This document shows, piece by piece, positions 3,615 to 39,027 of a DNA stretch of 64,000 nt. The stretch is taken from sequence record PZ445436.1; one strand, given 5' to 3'. Position 1 is the stretch's first letter. Every line of letters begins with the position of its first letter. The notes beneath the pieces were generated by a model that was not told the origin of the DNA, searched no databases, and saw nothing but the letters and a program-made list of their open reading frames with translations. Origin of the DNA: a phage. Made by a program: the position numbers and the translations under genes.

Positions 3615-3644
3615 CGTTTTTCCTTTTTGTTAACAGATGAATTA

Positions 3645-36081: not shown

Positions 36082-36222
36082 TTACCATACTAGTGAATGT
36101 AGTGCCATAATAACATCAGAAATGAAAAGCACGACTTGAATTAATCCGAACATTATTCCGTAATATAACGCTATCAATAAAATAGCAAGGGCTAATGAAT
36201 AGCCCAAGATTTTCTTAATCAT
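36082..36222 (-). CDS. possible 46-aa membrane peptide
   Basis: MIKKILGYSLALAILLIALYYGIMFGLIQVVLFISDVIMALHSLVW; overlaps neighbour by 8 nt. Confidence 0.35.
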   Translation of the reverse strand: MIKKILGYSLALAILLIALYYGIMFGLIQVVLFISDVIMALHSLVW

Positions 36223-36370
36223 TAGATAACAACACAAATGTTAAATATGCACACATACCCTGAGCTAAAGCTTGCGAAAACACACTGCTGGCATCGATAC
36301 AGATAGTTAAAACACATGCTACTATCCAACAAATAAATGAAATAACTCCTAATAATTTTGCGATATTCAT
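36215..36370 (-). CDS. possible 51-aa membrane peptide (ac-like by size and position)
   Basis: GAGGAAAAT SD then ATG 36368-36370; MNIAKLLGVISFICWIVACVLTICIDASSVFSQALAQGMCAYLTFVLLSND. Confidence 0.4.
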   Translation of the reverse strand: MNIAKLLGVISFICWIVACVLTICIDASSVFSQALAQGMCAYLTFVLLSND

Positions 36371-36458: not shown

Positions 36459-36916
36459 TAATATGCCTGCAAAACGAATTTAAAATTATCAGCCAACATA
36501 CGGTTCATTTCTTCAAGTGTTTGATACTCAGAATGATGATTACGAGTAAACGCCAAAGCTAACTGACCTTTTCCAAATCCCGTCGTCAGAGGTTTCATCT
36601 TAGAAGCAGGCAGATAAAATACTGTGTATGGAACATTGTTATTTGCAATAGTACGTGCAAGCTGAGACCGACGTTGACGAATATGACTTAGAACTGCACT
36701 GAATCCTTGCTTAGAACGCTGATTACCTACATAAAATCGTGCAGACACACATGGATTACTAAATGGACGACCATCTAATTTACTTACTAAAAAGTAAAAT
36801 CCAGGTTTAGACAAAATGTCTTTGTGCGGAGTTCCCAAAAACCATTCACCGCCCTTGATTGTACCAATAACAGTTGCGCCTGCATTGTTCAGATCAGTAA
36901 CAGTCATGTATTTCAT
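36458..36916 (-). CDS. ndd: Ndd nucleoid disruption protein
   Basis: 152 aa from ATG 36914-36916 ([18 protein letters not shown]...) with GAGGAAA SD. Confidence 0.85.
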
Positions 36917-36976
36917 ATTAATTTCCTCTAAATTATTTTCTACTCCAAGGCCGCATGAATACACGCGGCCATTAAA

Positions 36977-37192
36977 TTAATCGTCGCAGTCGACGCTCAA
37001 TTCCCAAAACTCTTCTACGGTATAAGTTTCAGTATCATTTTCAATACAGAAACGTTCATTACTATTGTTTGCTAAAGTAGCATTAACTGTCATTTTTTCG
37101 CTAGTGCTCTTAAGAGGTGAAATGCGAATTAACTGATCACCATTATCTAAACAAAAAATTTCACCAACTTTTACATCTTTAAAAATTTTCAT
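36977..37192 (-). CDS. hypothetical protein
   Basis: 71-aa ORF, GAGGTGA SD. Confidence 0.5.
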   Translation of the reverse strand: MKIFKDVKVGEIFCLDNGDQLIRISPLKSTSEKMTVNATLANNSNERFCIENDTETYTVEEFWELSVDCDD

Positions 37193-37200
37193 AATTCACC

Positions 37201-37308
37201 TCAAGGAGTATAAAATCCGAATGCAGTTGTTGACCATCCCATCCAATATGGAAAATTTGCACCAATGTAAAACATAAGAATATAAAACCAAATGTTTAGT
37301 AAATTCAT
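37201..37308 (-). CDS. possible 35-aa hydrophobic peptide
   Basis: MNLLNIWFYILMFYIGANFPYWMGWSTTAFGFYTP; start shares 1 nt with upstream stop. Confidence 0.35.
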   Translation of the reverse strand: MNLLNIWFYILMFYIGANFPYWMGWSTTAFGFYTP

Positions 37309-37526
37309 TATTTTACACCATTCCAAATTGTTTCAACCACAGATTTTAAACCATTTTGATGAATATCAATTCCGACTACTGTCATCAAATAGATTCCAAC
37401 TACAACTGAACCCAAGGCAAAAATCAGCATGAAAATGAATAAAGCCGGAAAAATATTATCGAAAAACCATTCAATAAATGTAAAAGCACTGCGTTTACGC
37501 TTCATATTTTCCTCACATAAATCCAA
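37308..37526 (-). CDS. small membrane protein
   Basis: 72-aa ORF with central TM helix. Confidence 0.5.
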   Translation of the reverse strand: MDLCEENMKRKRSAFTFIEWFFDNIFPALFIFMLIFALGSVVVGIYLMTVVGIDIHQNGLKSVVETIWNGVK

Positions 37527-37626
37527 AGTAAACGTTTAATACATCAATCATTAAAACGATTGGGAATATACTCAAAACTATTAGTATTATAACTACATTC
37601 CATATAGCTTTAACAATCTTTTTCAT
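37513..37626 (-). CDS. 37-aa membrane peptide
   Basis: GGAGGA SD then ATG 37624-37626; promoter at 37655-37684 lies inside the longer track ORF 37513..37761. Confidence 0.45.
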   Translation of the reverse strand: MKKIVKAIWNVVIILIVLSIFPIVLMIDVLNVYFGFM

Positions 37627-37654
37627 TTTCTGTTCCTCCGTAGTTGATAGGGTA

Positions 37655-37684
37655 ATAGTACCACGGAAGAACAGTCTTGTAAAC
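37655..37684 (-). promoter_or_regulatory. T4 early-type promoter
   Basis: GTTTAC, 18 nt, TACTAT; conserved downstream block CAACTATCAACTACGGAGGA. Confidence 0.6.
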
Positions 37685-37691
37685 AACTTTT

Positions 37692-37790
37692 TTAAAAATA
37701 TTCGTAATAAATGTGAATACCAACTACTACCGCTGAAACCTGTGCAACCCACCACGCACAAGCAATAAGTACAGAATTCAAAATTTTCAT
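37692..37790 (-). CDS. possible 32-aa membrane peptide
   Basis: GAGG SD; MKILNSVLIACAWWVAQVSAVVVGIHIYYEYF. Confidence 0.35.
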   Translation of the reverse strand: MKILNSVLIACAWWVAQVSAVVVGIHIYYEYF

Positions 37791-37873
37791 AATAACCTCA
37801 TCACAAAAGTAAATGTTAAACAAATTAATGGAATACTAATTAACCAAACAAAACACCACCATAATGAACTCAT
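37787..37873 (-). CDS. possible 28-aa hydrophobic peptide
   Basis: ATGA overlaps at both ends; MSSLWWCFVWLISIPLICLTFTFVMRLL. Confidence 0.3.
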   Translation of the reverse strand: MSSLWWCFVWLISIPLICLTFTFVMRLL

Positions 37874-38133
37874 AGTTCAATCTCAATGATTTCCAGGTGT
37901 TTTTGTTTTATTGCCTTTTTAACACAATCATGGACTAAATATGACCATGAATCATTATATTCTCCATTAACTAATCGTTGGAGATCTTCACGTGATGATA
38001 AGTAAGGTTGATCTGATTCCCATTTTGATAAAAATACTGCAGTAAAAATATCTCCTTCACCTGTAGTTGAAGTCGTAAATGCAATAAATTCACCGGTAAT
38101 TTTATGTTTAGCGTAATAAAATTTAAATTTCAT
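37870..38133 (-). CDS. hypothetical protein
   Basis: 87 aa from ATG 38131-38133 with GGAGGAG SD; early promoter lies inside the longer track ORF. Confidence 0.5.
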   Translation of the reverse strand: MKFKFYYAKHKITGEFIAFTTSTTGEGDIFTAVFLSKWESDQPYLSSREDLQRLVNGEYNDSWSYLVHDCVKKAIKQKHLEIIEIEL

Positions 38134-38160
38134 TTTTACTCCTCCGTAGCTGATAGTTGT

Positions 38161-38190
38161 ATAGTACCACGGTCCTTGTGGTATGTAAAC
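38161..38190 (-). promoter_or_regulatory. T4 early-type promoter
   Basis: GTTTAC, 18 nt, TGGTACTAT; same conserved downstream block. Confidence 0.6.
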
Positions 38191-38207
38191 CATTTTGTGA
38201 AATTTTT

Positions 38208-38765
38208 TTAAATGGAAAGATACCATCCGTTGTAGTTGCTTTTTCTTACAACCTTACGAAGGTCTTCTCTGTCACCGATGAACTTCGGAGTGTACTGGAT
38301 GACACCTGGATGAATTTCTTTAGTGTTGAATATAATTATACAGTCAGCGACTTGATGATTTAGAATGGGCCCTAGATTTATTCCAGAACCGTATGGATAC
38401 TCTCCGCTGCATCCTGTTGTTACAGAAATCCAACGTGAGTCAGTTTGGTGTGTCTTAACTTCTACACGAAGCCCGCAGTATCTTGGATGCGCCAATACAT
38501 CCCATGCGTATGTATACGGGTCATTAACATCCTCTTGGCCTTTATTAACATACCCGCTTAACCAATCTGCTACAAAAAATTCTGCGTACACAGCGATACG
38601 ACATCTTTCAATAACTTCTGCTTTATCCTGGTTCGGGTTTTGTTTTAAAGAGTATCTTGCTGTATCAGCAATTTTGACCTTCATTTCACTAGTCAAGTCA
38701 CTGTTCGATAGGGTAAATGTCGGAATCTGAAATAGTCTCTGTAAACCCGGATTCGTTTTCTGCAT
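38208..38765 (-). CDS. denB: endonuclease IV
   Basis: 185 aa, T4 DenB length and position upstream of ndd cluster; AAGGAAAG SD. Confidence 0.75.
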   Translation of the reverse strand: MQKTNPGLQRLFQIPTFTLSNSDLTSEMKVKIADTARYSLKQNPNQDKAEVIERCRIAVYAEFFVADWLSGYVNKGQEDVNDPYTYAWDVLAHPRYCGLRVEVKTHQTDSRWISVTTGCSGEYPYGSGINLGPILNHQVADCIIIFNTKEIHPGVIQYTPKFIGDREDLRKVVRKSNYNGWYLSI

Positions 38766-39027
38766 TTAGACTTTCCTTTTTACCACTGAGATAGGCGTTA
38801 TATACTTTAAGAGTGCCATAATAAATTCGGTCATTTTCATCTAAAGACTCGCGGTCAAGTTCATCGAGCTCCTTTTTATCCATGACTATAACATCATTAC
38901 AGTAAAGAAACCCAAGTTTTTCGTGACCAAACTCAAATTTATTACAGTACACAATATTAGCGTGATGATTTCCGTGCAGTTTAATCTCTTTTATGTCGGA
39001 ATCACCGATATTCATACAATAAATCAT
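38698..39027 (-). CDS. hypothetical protein
   Basis: 109-aa ORF, overlaps denB start by 68 nt. Confidence 0.45.
   Translation of the reverse strand: MIYCMNIGDSDIKEIKLHGNHHANIVYCNKFEFGHEKLGFLYCNDVIVMDKKELDELDRESLDENDRIYYGTLKVYNAYLSGKKESLNAENESGFTETISDSDIYPIEQ

Follow-up and report, generated by a model that had tools for sequence, protein, structure and literature searches.

Conserved genes for tiny hydrophobic peptides between ndd and denB in a T4-like phage

The five minus-strand micro-ORFs found between ndd and denB in a 64,000-nt stretch of phage DNA (record PZ445436.1; hereafter, the window) are genuine protein-coding genes, and sequence comparison identifies them as T4 ndd.6, ndd.5, ndd.4, ndd.2a/ndd.3, and ndd.2. 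A previous inspection of the DNA letters (the sequence-only reading) had proposed genes for tiny hydrophobic peptides at this place, and this was borne out, as the frames were open and dN/dS was low in 19 Tequatrovirus genomes. The same reading had described a single translationally coupled chain; instead, two promoter-headed groups were found. We regard it as rather probable that they are accessory micro-genes whose products are immediate-early micro-proteins of the inner membrane, serving on certain hosts or under certain conditions.

Identity and boundaries of the genes

The window belongs to Tequatrovirus and shares 99.9% DNA identity with phage teqdroes. The stretch under study matched T4 at 97%, and the T4 annotation there names ndd.2-ndd.6; by tblastn, the peptides were 91-100% identical to those of T4, and the position of the set between ndd and denB, its strand, and its order were the same in both phages. 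On the early-transcribed strand, the genes between denB and ndd are ordered ndd.6, ndd.5, ndd.4, the 65-aa gene, ndd.2, and ndd.1, followed by ndd. The ORFs listed in the sequence-only reading, at 37787-37873, 37692-37790, 37513-37626, 37308-37526 (72 aa from a TTG codon), and 37201-37308, were all present on the minus strand. Each of the five peptides matched a PHROG family over its full length, with E values from 3e-17 to 4e-29. These genes were already known: the T4 annotation carries ndd.2-ndd.6 as 'predicted membrane' proteins, and the families are included in PHROGs and Pfam. Their annotation is inconsistent between related records, and of 14 such records inspected, only 4 listed ndd.6, a gene overlooked by most automatic annotations; the suggestion that most of these frames fall below standard ORF cutoffs was, to this extent, partly supported.

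Homology to any function-assigned protein was absent in PHROG, Pfam, NCBIfam, PADLOC, and phmmer searches. The NCBIfam and PADLOC collections gave zero matches for the peptides, and no known RNA family was found with Rfam on either strand of the region. A word-indexed protein search returned 8 clusters, and phmmer, run exhaustively against 1.84 billion representatives, yielded only about four genuine small homologues, with neither a distant homologue nor a domain fusion hinting at function. Three long hydrophobic proteins among the phmmer matches were treated as compositional.

The gene chain really begins one gene earlier than flagged, at an ORF for a soluble 87-aa protein (37870..38133; this and the following genes are all on the minus strand). 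This ORF matched phrog_2390 and is a homologue of PST ORF268. Homologues were present at 14 of the 37 related loci and absent from T4, where a gap of 106 nt is all that lies at this position. The next gene, ndd.6 (37787..37873; 28 aa; phrog_8851, E 3e-17), encodes a single hydrophobic helix with conserved cysteines and R26 as the sole charged residue. It is followed by ndd.5 (37692..37790; 32 aa; phrog_5011, E 4e-26), with a GAGG Shine-Dalgarno upstream of the start, and by ndd.4 (37513..37626; 37 aa; phrog_3098, E 3e-21), whose product has the basic N-terminus MKKIVK, a predicted transmembrane (TM) helix with conserved Pro and Asp, and an aromatic C-terminal tail. The 65-aa protein (37308..37505; phrog_2401), which corresponds to T4 'ndd.3' and 'ndd.2a' as one gene, matched DUF7248 (Pfam PF23906) with 68.1 bits against a cut-off of 27, covering profile positions 4-57 of 58. 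It has a basic N-terminus, one long predicted TM helix, and the conserved C-terminal motif GLKSVVExIWNG; AlphaFold2 predicted a single helix from residue 3 to 62 (pLDDT 81.8). The aromatic-rich ndd.2 product (37201..37308; 35 aa; phrog_4135, E 3e-23) contains the conserved motif N-x-P-Y-W-(L/M)-G. The flagged range, starting at 36977, also takes in ndd.1 (36977..37192; phrog_2183, E 3e-38), which closes the second group and encodes a soluble, acidic protein of 71 aa (GRAVY -0.42), not a membrane peptide.

The 87-aa ORF and ndd.6, as well as ndd.6 and ndd.5, overlap by ATGA, and the 65-aa gene shares one base with ndd.2 within TAATG, a junction that reads ATGATGA in other strains. A 65-nt spacer with an early promoter inside it parts ndd.5 from ndd.4, the gap between ndd.2 and ndd.1 is 8 nt, and GGAGG or GAGG ribosome sites were observed upstream of the starts. 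The proposed linkage of all five frames by ATGA or TAATG thus held for ndd.6/ndd.5 and for the 65-aa gene/ndd.2; it failed for ndd.5/ndd.4, which are separated by the spacer, and for ndd.4 and the 72-aa frame, which requires the TTG start. This 72-aa ORF (37308-37526), overlapping ndd.4, was rejected in favor of the conserved ATG at 37505. This codon has GAGG upstream, is conserved across relatives, and gives a protein of 65 aa with a 7-nt gap after ndd.4; it is most likely the start of the gene.

In the T4 reference (NC_000866), ndd.3 and ndd.2a stand where the window has the single 65-aa gene, and one base is missing in codon 2, so that the split is apparently a frameshift. The finding of ATGAAGCGT at the ndd.3/ndd.2a site in all T4 stocks would mean that the split in the reference is an error. 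A further difference concerns the length of ndd.4: the window gene encodes 37 aa, and the gene as annotated in T4, in which a C-to-T change produces an upstream ATG within the ribosome site, encodes 42 aa.

Coding evidence and conservation

The alignment of 19 Tequatrovirus genomes showed no in-frame stop in the five micro-ORFs. Variable sites at codon positions 1, 2, and 3 were 20, 7, and 52 for the five genes together, 1, 1, and 9 for ndd.5, and 4, 2, and 21 for the 65-aa gene. The pooled dN/dS was 0.05-0.12 for four of the genes (0.09 for ndd.6, 0.08 for ndd.5, 0.05 for the 65-aa gene, and 0.12 for ndd.2), and the value for ndd.1 was 0.09. For ndd.4, it was 0.52, with replacements that were mainly I/V swaps, and V/A at one position. 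Insertions and deletions in the five micro-ORFs or at their ends were mostly of 3 or 12 nt, or fell within spacers; occasional frameshifts were found, i.e., +2 nt in ndd.6 of L003 and -1 nt in the T4 reference.

A wider survey covered 37 loci whose Ndd was 44-100% identical, and conservation in T4-like relatives was confirmed: four of the five families were found again, likewise between denB and ndd, in distantly related T4-like phages of Erwinia, Enterobacter, and Serratia. The carriers included VR20, EcS1, Erwinia phage Cronus, and relatives infecting Enterobacter, Citrobacter, and Serratia, and amino-acid motifs were kept in genera where Ndd was only 44-66% identical. The most widely conserved member was ndd.4, present in 31 of the 37 loci and about 61% identical in other genera, followed by DUF7248 (18 loci), ndd.2 (14), ndd.6 (13), and ndd.5 (5), the last being confined to Tequatrovirus in this survey. 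In most loci carrying both, the ndd.4 stop and the DUF7248 start are no more than about 11 nt apart; judged from this arrangement, ndd.4 and DUF7248 are a conserved adjacent pair, often accompanied by ndd.2. The gene content between denB and ndd varied among the loci, and 3 of the 37 carried none of these genes.

Of the interval 37201-37873, 89% is occupied by same-strand ATG ORFs of 28 aa or more, a coverage that was not reached in any of 2000 dinucleotide shuffles, and four or more hydrophobic ORFs appeared in 4 of the 2000. Over the six frames of this AT-rich window, a hydrophobic 19-mer is present in 24% of all small ATG ORFs, and hydrophobic character is therefore, by itself, weak evidence for a gene. 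Four plus-strand ORFs (37292-37432, 37429-37539, 37065-37136, and 37117-37182) were rejected as shadows, as their own third codon positions were not favored; two of the four were broken in most relatives. A 14-nt similarity between ndd.5 and the 65-aa gene (repeat family D13) was set aside as a probable chance match.

Early promoters and stem-loops

The T4 early-promoter consensus had 11 perfect matches in the window, all on the minus strand, against an expectation of 0.03. Two of them, reading TTTACA-17-TACTAT, lie at 38189-38161 and 37683-37655. The first belongs to a PeSL-type element, GTTTAC-N14-GTGGTACTAT (38161..38190, minus strand), which has a TG extension and heads the first group; the second (37655..37684, minus strand) occupies the spacer between ndd.5 and ndd.4. 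A 40-nt direct repeat is common to both (repeat family D2), and in phage SA20RB, the counterpart of the second promoter is annotated as a T4-type early promoter. Both also fit the T4/PST PeSL consensus TTTACW-N17-TAYWAT. From these elements and the junctions, two early units are predicted, each headed by a sigma-70-type T4 early promoter inside a PeSL cassette. The first would comprise the 87-aa ORF, ndd.6, and ndd.5, linked by the ATGA overlaps, and the second would comprise ndd.4, the 65-aa gene, ndd.2, and ndd.1, joined through the 7-nt gap, TAATG, and the 8-nt gap.

A 15-bp hairpin (37630..37674, minus strand) spans from the second promoter spacer to the ndd.4 Shine-Dalgarno. Its folding energy was -22.7 kcal/mol (z = -4.2), and none of 200 shuffles folded as well. 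The promoter spacer contains the 5' arm, most of the -10 hexamer falls within the loop, and GGAGG, the ndd.4 Shine-Dalgarno, is part of the 3' arm. Equivalent hairpins were observed in other genera, with arms that are complementary but different in sequence. These arms were compared sequence by sequence; a column-based covariation count was dropped because MAFFT aligns on the promoter boxes, from which the stem lies at offsets that vary between genera. The stem-loop of the upstream cassette was weak (7 bp, z = -1.3). Since the hairpin pairs the second-promoter spacer with the ndd.4 Shine-Dalgarno, this ribosome site would be masked on RNA reading through from the first unit; RNA initiated from the promoter within the hairpin would leave it accessible.

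The PeSL are promoter-early stem-loop cassettes of T4-type phages, and ndd.4/.5 versus PST ORF268/269 is a published example of exchange mediated by them (Arbiol et al. 2010; Comeau et al. 2014). Promoter and terminator/attenuator activity has been demonstrated only for the RB49/phi1 cassettes (same PeSL literature). The elements described here share with PeSL the TTTACW-N17-TAYWAT promoters, a stem-loop over the -10 box, and a Shine-Dalgarno and ATG at the 3' end, along with gene gain and loss, as the 87-aa ORF is found here and in PST-like phages but not in T4. They differ in that the 3' stem arm contains the ndd.4 Shine-Dalgarno, which suggests translational masking besides attenuation.

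Between ndd.1 and ndd, a second strong hairpin was found (36949..36970, minus strand), GC-rich and with the sequence GGCCGCGUG-UAUU-CAUGCGGCC (-22.4 kcal/mol, z = -4.2). The equivalent site in SA20RB is annotated as a rho-independent terminator; here, no U-run follows the hairpin, and it could be a terminator or an RNA-stability element.

Membrane character and possible function

The peptides were scored by the Kyte-Doolittle mean over 19 residues (KD19) and by summed insertion energy. Those of ndd.6 (2.31, -0.98 kcal/mol), ndd.4 (3.06, -1.49 kcal/mol), and the 65-aa gene scored clearly as transmembrane, with KD19 of 2.3-3.1 and insertion energies below zero. The ndd.5 peptide was marginal (2.17, +1.24 kcal/mol), and ndd.2, with 34% aromatic residues, was doubtful (1.29, +4.05 kcal/mol). 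The expectation of one TM helix in each product was, therefore, upheld for ndd.6, ndd.4, and the 65-aa protein, but not clearly for the other two. The lysine and arginine residues of ndd.4, the 65-aa protein, and ndd.5 are N-terminal, and an N-in/C-out orientation is accordingly predicted for the first two and is probable for ndd.5; ndd.6 would have its C-terminus inside. A motif of the lipobox type, L-(A/S/T/V/I)-(G/A/S)-C, was found as LIAC at residues 8-11 of ndd.5 and was absent from the four other peptides. Ten residues before the Cys is short for a lipoprotein signal peptide. A lipoprotein assignment for ndd.5 was left unsupported; such a reading is a possible source of old 'outer membrane protein' labels. 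Just past ndd in the window, ac and 52.1 also encode single-TM micro-proteins.

In published T4 data, RNA-seq classed the ndd.2-ndd.6 transcripts as early (Class_Tx 'early'), and shotgun proteomics did not detect the ndd.2-ndd.6 peptides (protein class NA), while the ndd.1 protein was detected in the early class; such small hydrophobic peptides are poor targets for this technique. In laboratory E. coli, ndd.2-ndd.6 had no fitness effect, being scored 'Not Fit' by CRISPRi knock-down and 'Non-essential' in a transposon screen. Our literature search found no ribosome-profiling data on T4 and nothing relevant on small T4 membrane proteins.

In the model we favor, the peptides would enter the host inner membrane in the first minutes of infection and would modulate host inner-membrane proteins or envelope physiology, on particular hosts or under particular conditions only. 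Within it, ndd.4 and DUF7248, often with ndd.2, would be an adjacent module that may act as one complex. Since homology to any protein of known function is absent, the mode of action is proposed by analogy only. The suggested action on host membrane proteins is plausible. E. coli AcrZ, MgrB, KdpF, MgtS, and CydX are small inner-membrane modulators whose function depends on binding a larger membrane protein. With the AcrZ/MgrB class, the phage peptides share a size below 50-65 residues and the lack of an enzymatic domain; the single TM helix of that class is clear for three of the peptides, marginal for ndd.5, and doubtful for ndd.2. They differ in having no sequence similarity and in their phage, not host, origin, so the likeness is one of mechanism and not of membership. 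The T4 proteins Ac (acridine resistance), Imm, and Sp (superinfection exclusion) are likewise early, small, membrane-located, non-essential, and encoded in deletable regions, but show no homology to the ndd.2-ndd.6 peptides.

A more specific role in counter-defense or exclusion, by which the peptides would neutralize membrane-associated abortive infection or prophage exclusion or block superinfecting phages, is unlikely, although several observations fit it. The models would be the neighbors rIIA/rIIB, which counter RexAB, and T4 Imm and Sp, which exclude secondary phage. The genes are part of a variable early region next to rIIB, denB, ndd, stp, and ac, their content shifts between relatives, and they are flanked by PeSL shuffling cassettes; the sequences are under purifying selection, and the lack of a phenotype on a laboratory host is what conditionally useful genes would show. 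This is, however, guilt by association only: similarity to Imm, Sp, or defense-related models was absent in PHROG and PADLOC, and the HIDEN-SEQ comparison rows for these genes showed no significant change (q = 1.0).

We consider it decidedly unlikely that all or some of the peptides are the genetic determinant of the T4-induced phospholipid change (phosphatidylglycerol stimulation), acting through inner-membrane lipid-synthesis enzymes or their regulation. The deletion saDelta9, from 52.1 through denB, removes 52.1, ac, stp, ndd, ndd.1-ndd.6, and denB, several of whose products are predicted membrane proteins; the mutant is viable with about 50% yield, and the phage-induced stimulation of phospholipid synthesis is virtually abolished (Kutter et al. 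2018). For this effect, a protein must be synthesized in the first 5 min of infection (Kutter et al. 2018), a requirement that fits the early promoters described here. Nevertheless, saDelta9 lacks about 3.4 kb and at least 12 genes, any of which could cause the lipid phenotype, and phosphatidylglycerol stimulation is also lost in strains whose only stated defects are in dCTPase, endonuclease IV, and Alc (Kutter et al. 2018), pointing as much to denB or alc. Moreover, no sequence link to lipid enzymes was found in Pfam or NCBIfam. A bolder version has, in our judgment, only a slim chance of being right: ndd.4, DUF7248, and ndd.2 would form a hetero-oligomeric inner-membrane micro-complex whose periplasmic GLKSVVExIWNG tail engages a specific host envelope protein, and this module, and not denB or ndd, would set the early T4 phospholipid rewiring or a membrane-level counter-defense.

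Membrane-damaging toxic peptides of the type I toxin or holin-like kind, depolarizing or permeabilizing the inner membrane and aiding host shutdown, are very unlikely. Small membrane toxins are similar in size and composition to these peptides of 28-37 aa with one hydrophobic helix, and many small T4 immediate-early genes are host-lethal when cloned. The phage, however, depends on host metabolism for about 25 min and would itself suffer from an early energy collapse. Rfam revealed neither an antisense RNA, as expected for type I toxins, nor any known RNA family on either strand, and the promoters are of the early type, not the late type expected for holins. The 65-aa protein has, in addition, a strongly conserved soluble C-terminal motif, which suggests specific binding and not generic membrane damage. 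Finally, non-functional chance frames in an AT-rich spacer between promoter cassettes, conserved through close kinship or a DNA or RNA constraint, would agree with the frequency of hydrophobic 19-mers, the peptides missed by mass spectrometry, the lack of a knock-down or insertion phenotype, and the inconsistent annotation, but this reading is highly improbable and strongly disfavored by the third-position bias, the low dN/dS, the motifs that persist in loci with divergent Ndd, the conserved ATG and Shine-Dalgarno geometry, and the ORF coverage unmatched in the shuffles.

Regarding the accessory micro-genes favored here, their value as a discovery is limited, as they were annotated in T4 decades ago, have entries in PHROGs and Pfam, and were included in two recent genome-wide screens. 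For T4 itself, the 65-aa DUF7248 gene should supersede 'ndd.3 + ndd.2a', and an old deletion phenotype, the loss of phage-induced phospholipid synthesis, maps to the block containing these genes. Collectively, T4-like phages keep a conserved battery of micro-proteins under purifying selection, with ndd.4 and DUF7248 as its conserved core.

Layout of the ndd–denB interval

Gene 52, 52.1, ac, stp, and ndd lie on one flank of the interval, and denB, denB.1, and rIIB on the other. The region 36900-38300 was 99.9% identical to Escherichia phage teqdroes and was matched by 498 phage records, nearly all from Tequatrovirus; across the micro-ORF stretch, identity reached 100% with phage R5505 and 97.1% with T4. 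Since the T4 reference already annotates ndd.1, ndd.2, ndd.2a, ndd.3, ndd.4, ndd.5, and ndd.6 here, mostly as hypothetical predicted membrane or periplasmic proteins, the set is a rediscovery of annotated genes, and as an observation it holds nothing new. At the sequence level, the features defining the T4 ndd.2-ndd.6 families, DUF7248 (PF23906), and the promoter-early stem-loop (PeSL) class were found.

The sequence-only reading had described 36977-37873 as a coupled chain of five minus-strand ORFs, each encoding essentially one transmembrane helix, and all five were located where it had placed them. Coupling by overlapping codons was borne out for ndd.6 (37787-37873) and ndd.5 (37692-37790), which share ATGA, and for the 65-aa DUF7248 gene and ndd.2, with one base in common (TAATG). 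It did not extend to ndd.5 and ndd.4, which are separated by a 65-nt spacer with an early promoter, or to ndd.4 and the proposed 72-aa ORF, whose overlap needs a TTG start within the ndd.4 end. We rejected this 72-aa product in favor of the ATG at 37505: GAGG precedes this codon at 5-nt spacing, the start is annotated in relatives, and the TGAGGAAAAT-ATG geometry is kept in other genera; therefore, the product has 65 aa and starts 7 nt past the ndd.4 stop. Stop/start codon overlaps are common in this genome, and several further pairs in the same T4 stretch are alike. The lower bound of the span, 36977, also takes in ndd.1, which is soluble.

Between ndd.6 and denB, a soluble 87-aa ORF (37870-38133, minus strand) with its own PeSL promoter overlaps ndd.6 by ATGA, so it is part of the chain. 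It corresponds to phrog_2390, is a homologue of PST ORF268, and is not in T4, where there is a 106-nt gap. Its copies in five IMG/VR Tequatrovirus loci showed about 55% identity versus 96-100% for the flanking genes, a divergence that suggests replacement of a cassette. Comeau et al. (2014) chose this very locus, comparing ndd.4/.5 of T4 with ORF268/269 of PST, to exemplify PeSL-mediated cassette exchange.

Beyond ndd, at 36082-36370 on the minus strand, two more genes encode strongly hydrophobic single-pass micro-proteins: 52.1, with 46 aa counted from its ATG and an insertion energy of -2.95 kcal/mol, and the acridine-resistance gene ac, with 51 aa and -3.23 kcal/mol. On the same side, stp is a 26-aa peptide; therefore, the peptide battery exceeds the flagged span. 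A separate observation concerns a 109-aa ORF (38698-39027, minus strand) between denB and denB.1, which runs 68 nt into the 5' end of the 185-aa denB frame and whose position in T4 is a mere 82-nt gap. The teqdroes annotation labels it 'endonuclease IV' and cuts denB to 158 aa, so one annotation of the two is probably incorrect.

Coding evidence and conservation

Coding potential was judged on an alignment of 19 Tequatrovirus genomes, made up of twelve GenBank records and five IMG/VR loci besides the window and the T4 reference. No in-frame stop was found in the five micro-ORFs across them. Variable sites at codon positions 1/2/3 were 3/0/4 for ndd.6, 1/1/9 for ndd.5, 6/1/5 for ndd.4, 4/2/21 for the 65-aa gene, and 6/3/13 for ndd.2 (20/7/52 in sum), and the pooled dN/dS values were 0.09, 0.08, 0.52, 0.05, and 0.12, respectively; the ndd.4 replacements were for the most part I/V swaps. 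Plus-strand ORFs of the region were rejected, having the wrong codon-position pattern, and two were broken in most relatives. Occasional indels were seen in single genomes: ndd.6 had a 3-nt insertion in one genome and, in L003 (about 2115-2125), a 2-nt insertion at its 3' end that fuses it to a long out-of-frame tail; in L048, the 65-aa/ndd.2 junction lacked 12 nt and the ndd.2 ATG was lost; and in L049, a 44-nt insertion split ndd.1. Apart from these and the T4 base loss described below, indels lay in spacers or ndd.1. The disruptions in L003, L048, and L049 could reflect either faulty sequencing or genuine loss, and they fit with dispensability. Annotation of ndd.6 was present in only 4 of 14 records inspected.

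With Ndd as the anchor, 37 loci were fetched (Ndd 44-100% identical), including phages VR20, EcS1, Erwinia phage Cronus, and relatives on Enterobacter, Citrobacter, and Serratia, and the ORFs upstream of ndd were subjected to an iterative profile search. The ndd.4 family occurred in 31 loci, DUF7248 in 18, ndd.2 in 14, and ndd.6 in 13; ndd.5 was confined to five, all Tequatrovirus, and three loci had none of the genes. Members of the ndd.4 family begin with a basic N-terminus (MKK..KAIWN), carry a Pro in mid-helix and an Asp close to the distal helix end, and finish in an aromatic tail. DUF7248 has a basic N-terminus, a single long helix, and an almost invariant C-terminal GLKSVVExIWNG, and usually starts no more than about 11 nt past the ndd.4 stop; ndd.2 is marked by N-x-P-Y-W-(L/M)-G and ndd.6 by W-C-x-I/V-W...C-I-P-x-I-C. 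The frames, whose loss in relatives had been named as evidence against the proposal, are thus clearly conserved, being open in 19 genomes and, for four of the five families, recurring in distant loci.

The T4 reference (NC_000866, L002) alone reads ATGAA-CGT where 18 other genomes, among them another T4 clone (OL964735), read ATGAAGCGT. This 1-nt loss falls in codon 2 of the 65-aa gene (window 37497-37505; L002 about 3620-3629) and indicates, on the alignment, that the T4 pair is one split gene, 'ndd.3' being its out-of-frame head and 'ndd.2a' its internal-Met tail. Either a stock-specific mutation or a sequencing error probably underlies the loss; a length of 82 nt for ndd.3 in the HIDEN-SEQ T4 annotation (2025) is consistent with the extra base. 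In T4, the ndd.4 ribosome site carries a C-to-T change (ACTATGGAGG; window 37636-37644; L002 and L046 equivalents) that creates an upstream in-frame ATG, which is why T4 ndd.4 is annotated with 42 aa, and that turns a hairpin G-C pair into G-U; all other genomes back the 37-aa start. Natural in-frame chimeras (proteins P0007 and P0008) were observed in Shigella phage Sf25, with an ndd.4 N-terminus and DUF7248 C-terminus (62 aa), and in a T4 variant, with an ndd.5 N-terminus and DUF7248 C-terminus (43 aa); therefore, deletions between micro-genes can yield new single-helix peptides.

Promoters and hairpins

The T4 early-promoter consensus quoted in the SA20RB annotation, GTTTAC-N14-GTGGTAYTAT, gave 11 matches in the window with up to two mismatches (2336 to 58974; 0.03 expected), all on the minus strand, and these predicted sites map the early transcription units of the entire window. 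Two perfect matches, 38161-38190 and 37655-37684 (minus strand), the latter in the ndd.5-ndd.4 spacer, have a 40-nt direct repeat in common and fit the PST/T4 PeSL consensus TTTACW-N17-TAYWAT.

The same spacer holds a 15-bp hairpin (37630-37674; -22.7 kcal/mol, z = -4.2), with its 5' arm within the promoter spacer, most of the -10 box in its loop, and a 3' arm, ACUACGGAGGAACAG, that includes the ndd.4 ribosome site. This agrees with the PeSL stem-loops described in the literature, where the -10 box falls within the structure and a Shine-Dalgarno sequence and ATG come after it. Equivalent hairpins in other genera have other complementary arms, e.g., CAUCUCCAUUAG/CUAAUGGAGAUG, UCCUCCGUUAG/CUAACGGAG, and UUGUUCUUCGGU/ACUGGAGAACAA. 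Read-through transcripts from the upstream promoter would hold both arms, so the ndd.4 ribosome site would be masked or the transcript attenuated; a transcript initiated inside the hairpin would carry the 3' arm alone and leave ndd.4 translatable. The ribosome sites of ndd.4 and the 87-aa ORF contain GGAG, which the T4 nuclease RegB is described as cutting in early mRNAs, making rapid shut-off plausible from the motif. The GC-rich hairpin that follows ndd.1 (36949-36970; -22.4 kcal/mol) bears a terminator annotation in one relative, SA20RB, but has no U-run.

Membrane character and possible role

The best 19-residue Kyte-Doolittle means were 2.31 (ndd.6), 2.17 (ndd.5), 3.06 (ndd.4), 2.71 (65-aa), and 1.29 (ndd.2), and the summed energies on a position-independent membrane-insertion scale were -0.98, +1.24, -1.49, -2.88, and +4.05 kcal/mol, respectively. 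On both measures, the proposed one helix per peptide holds for ndd.6, ndd.4, and the 65-aa protein as clear single-pass candidates, is marginal for ndd.5, and is doubtful for ndd.2, in which 34% of the residues are aromatic. AlphaFold2 modeled the 65-aa protein as a single continuous helix over residues 3-62 (mean pLDDT 81.8). On the same strand, ATG ORFs of 28 aa or more take up 89% of 37201-37873, a value reached in none of 2000 dinucleotide-preserving shuffles, and at least four hydrophobic ORFs arose in 4 of 2000. Among the small ATG ORFs of this AT-rich window, with all six frames counted, 24% carry a hydrophobic 19-mer, so hydrophobicity alone is weak proof, and conservation must bear the argument.

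In T4, RNA-seq classed the ndd.2,.2a,.3,.4,.5, and.6 transcripts as early; proteomics did not detect their proteins, and found Ndd and Ndd.1 as early proteins. Our literature search found no ribosome-profiling data for T4. The score was 'Not Fit' for ndd.1 to ndd.6 in CRISPRi-ART and 'Non-essential' for ndd.2 to ndd.6 in HIDEN-SEQ transposon mapping, in which the comparison rows retrieved for these genes gave no significant change.

From their anatomy, the products are most likely immediate-early micro-proteins that span the inner membrane once. The positive-inside rule predicts an N-in/C-out topology for ndd.4 (three Lys before the helix), the 65-aa protein (four Lys/Arg before the helix), and ndd.5 (one Lys), which would put the conserved tail of DUF7248 on the periplasmic side; ndd.6, with a lone C-terminal Arg, would have the opposite orientation. 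A less likely reading would make the peptides a lipid-synthesis determinant: the classical deletion saDelta9, which spans 52.1, ac, stp, ndd, ndd.1-ndd.6, and denB, still yielded about 50% as much phage as the wild type and all but abolished phage-induced stimulation of phospholipid synthesis, and its authors called the ndd.1-ndd.6 products unknown. They might also be counter-defense or exclusion factors, or a membrane toxin. That they are non-genes is strongly disfavored because of the substitution pattern in the aligned genomes.

For micro-proteins of the inner membrane, the closest working analogy is with the small-protein modulators of bacteria, AcrZ and MgrB among them, an analogy without homology; we also suggest that Ac may invite comparison with AcrZ, the E. 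coli efflux-pump modulator. Purifying selection together with laboratory dispensability, the variable, cassette-flanked neighborhood, and neighbor genes dealing with host exclusion systems all speak for an accessory role specific to certain hosts or conditions, which the peptides would exert by binding host membrane components.
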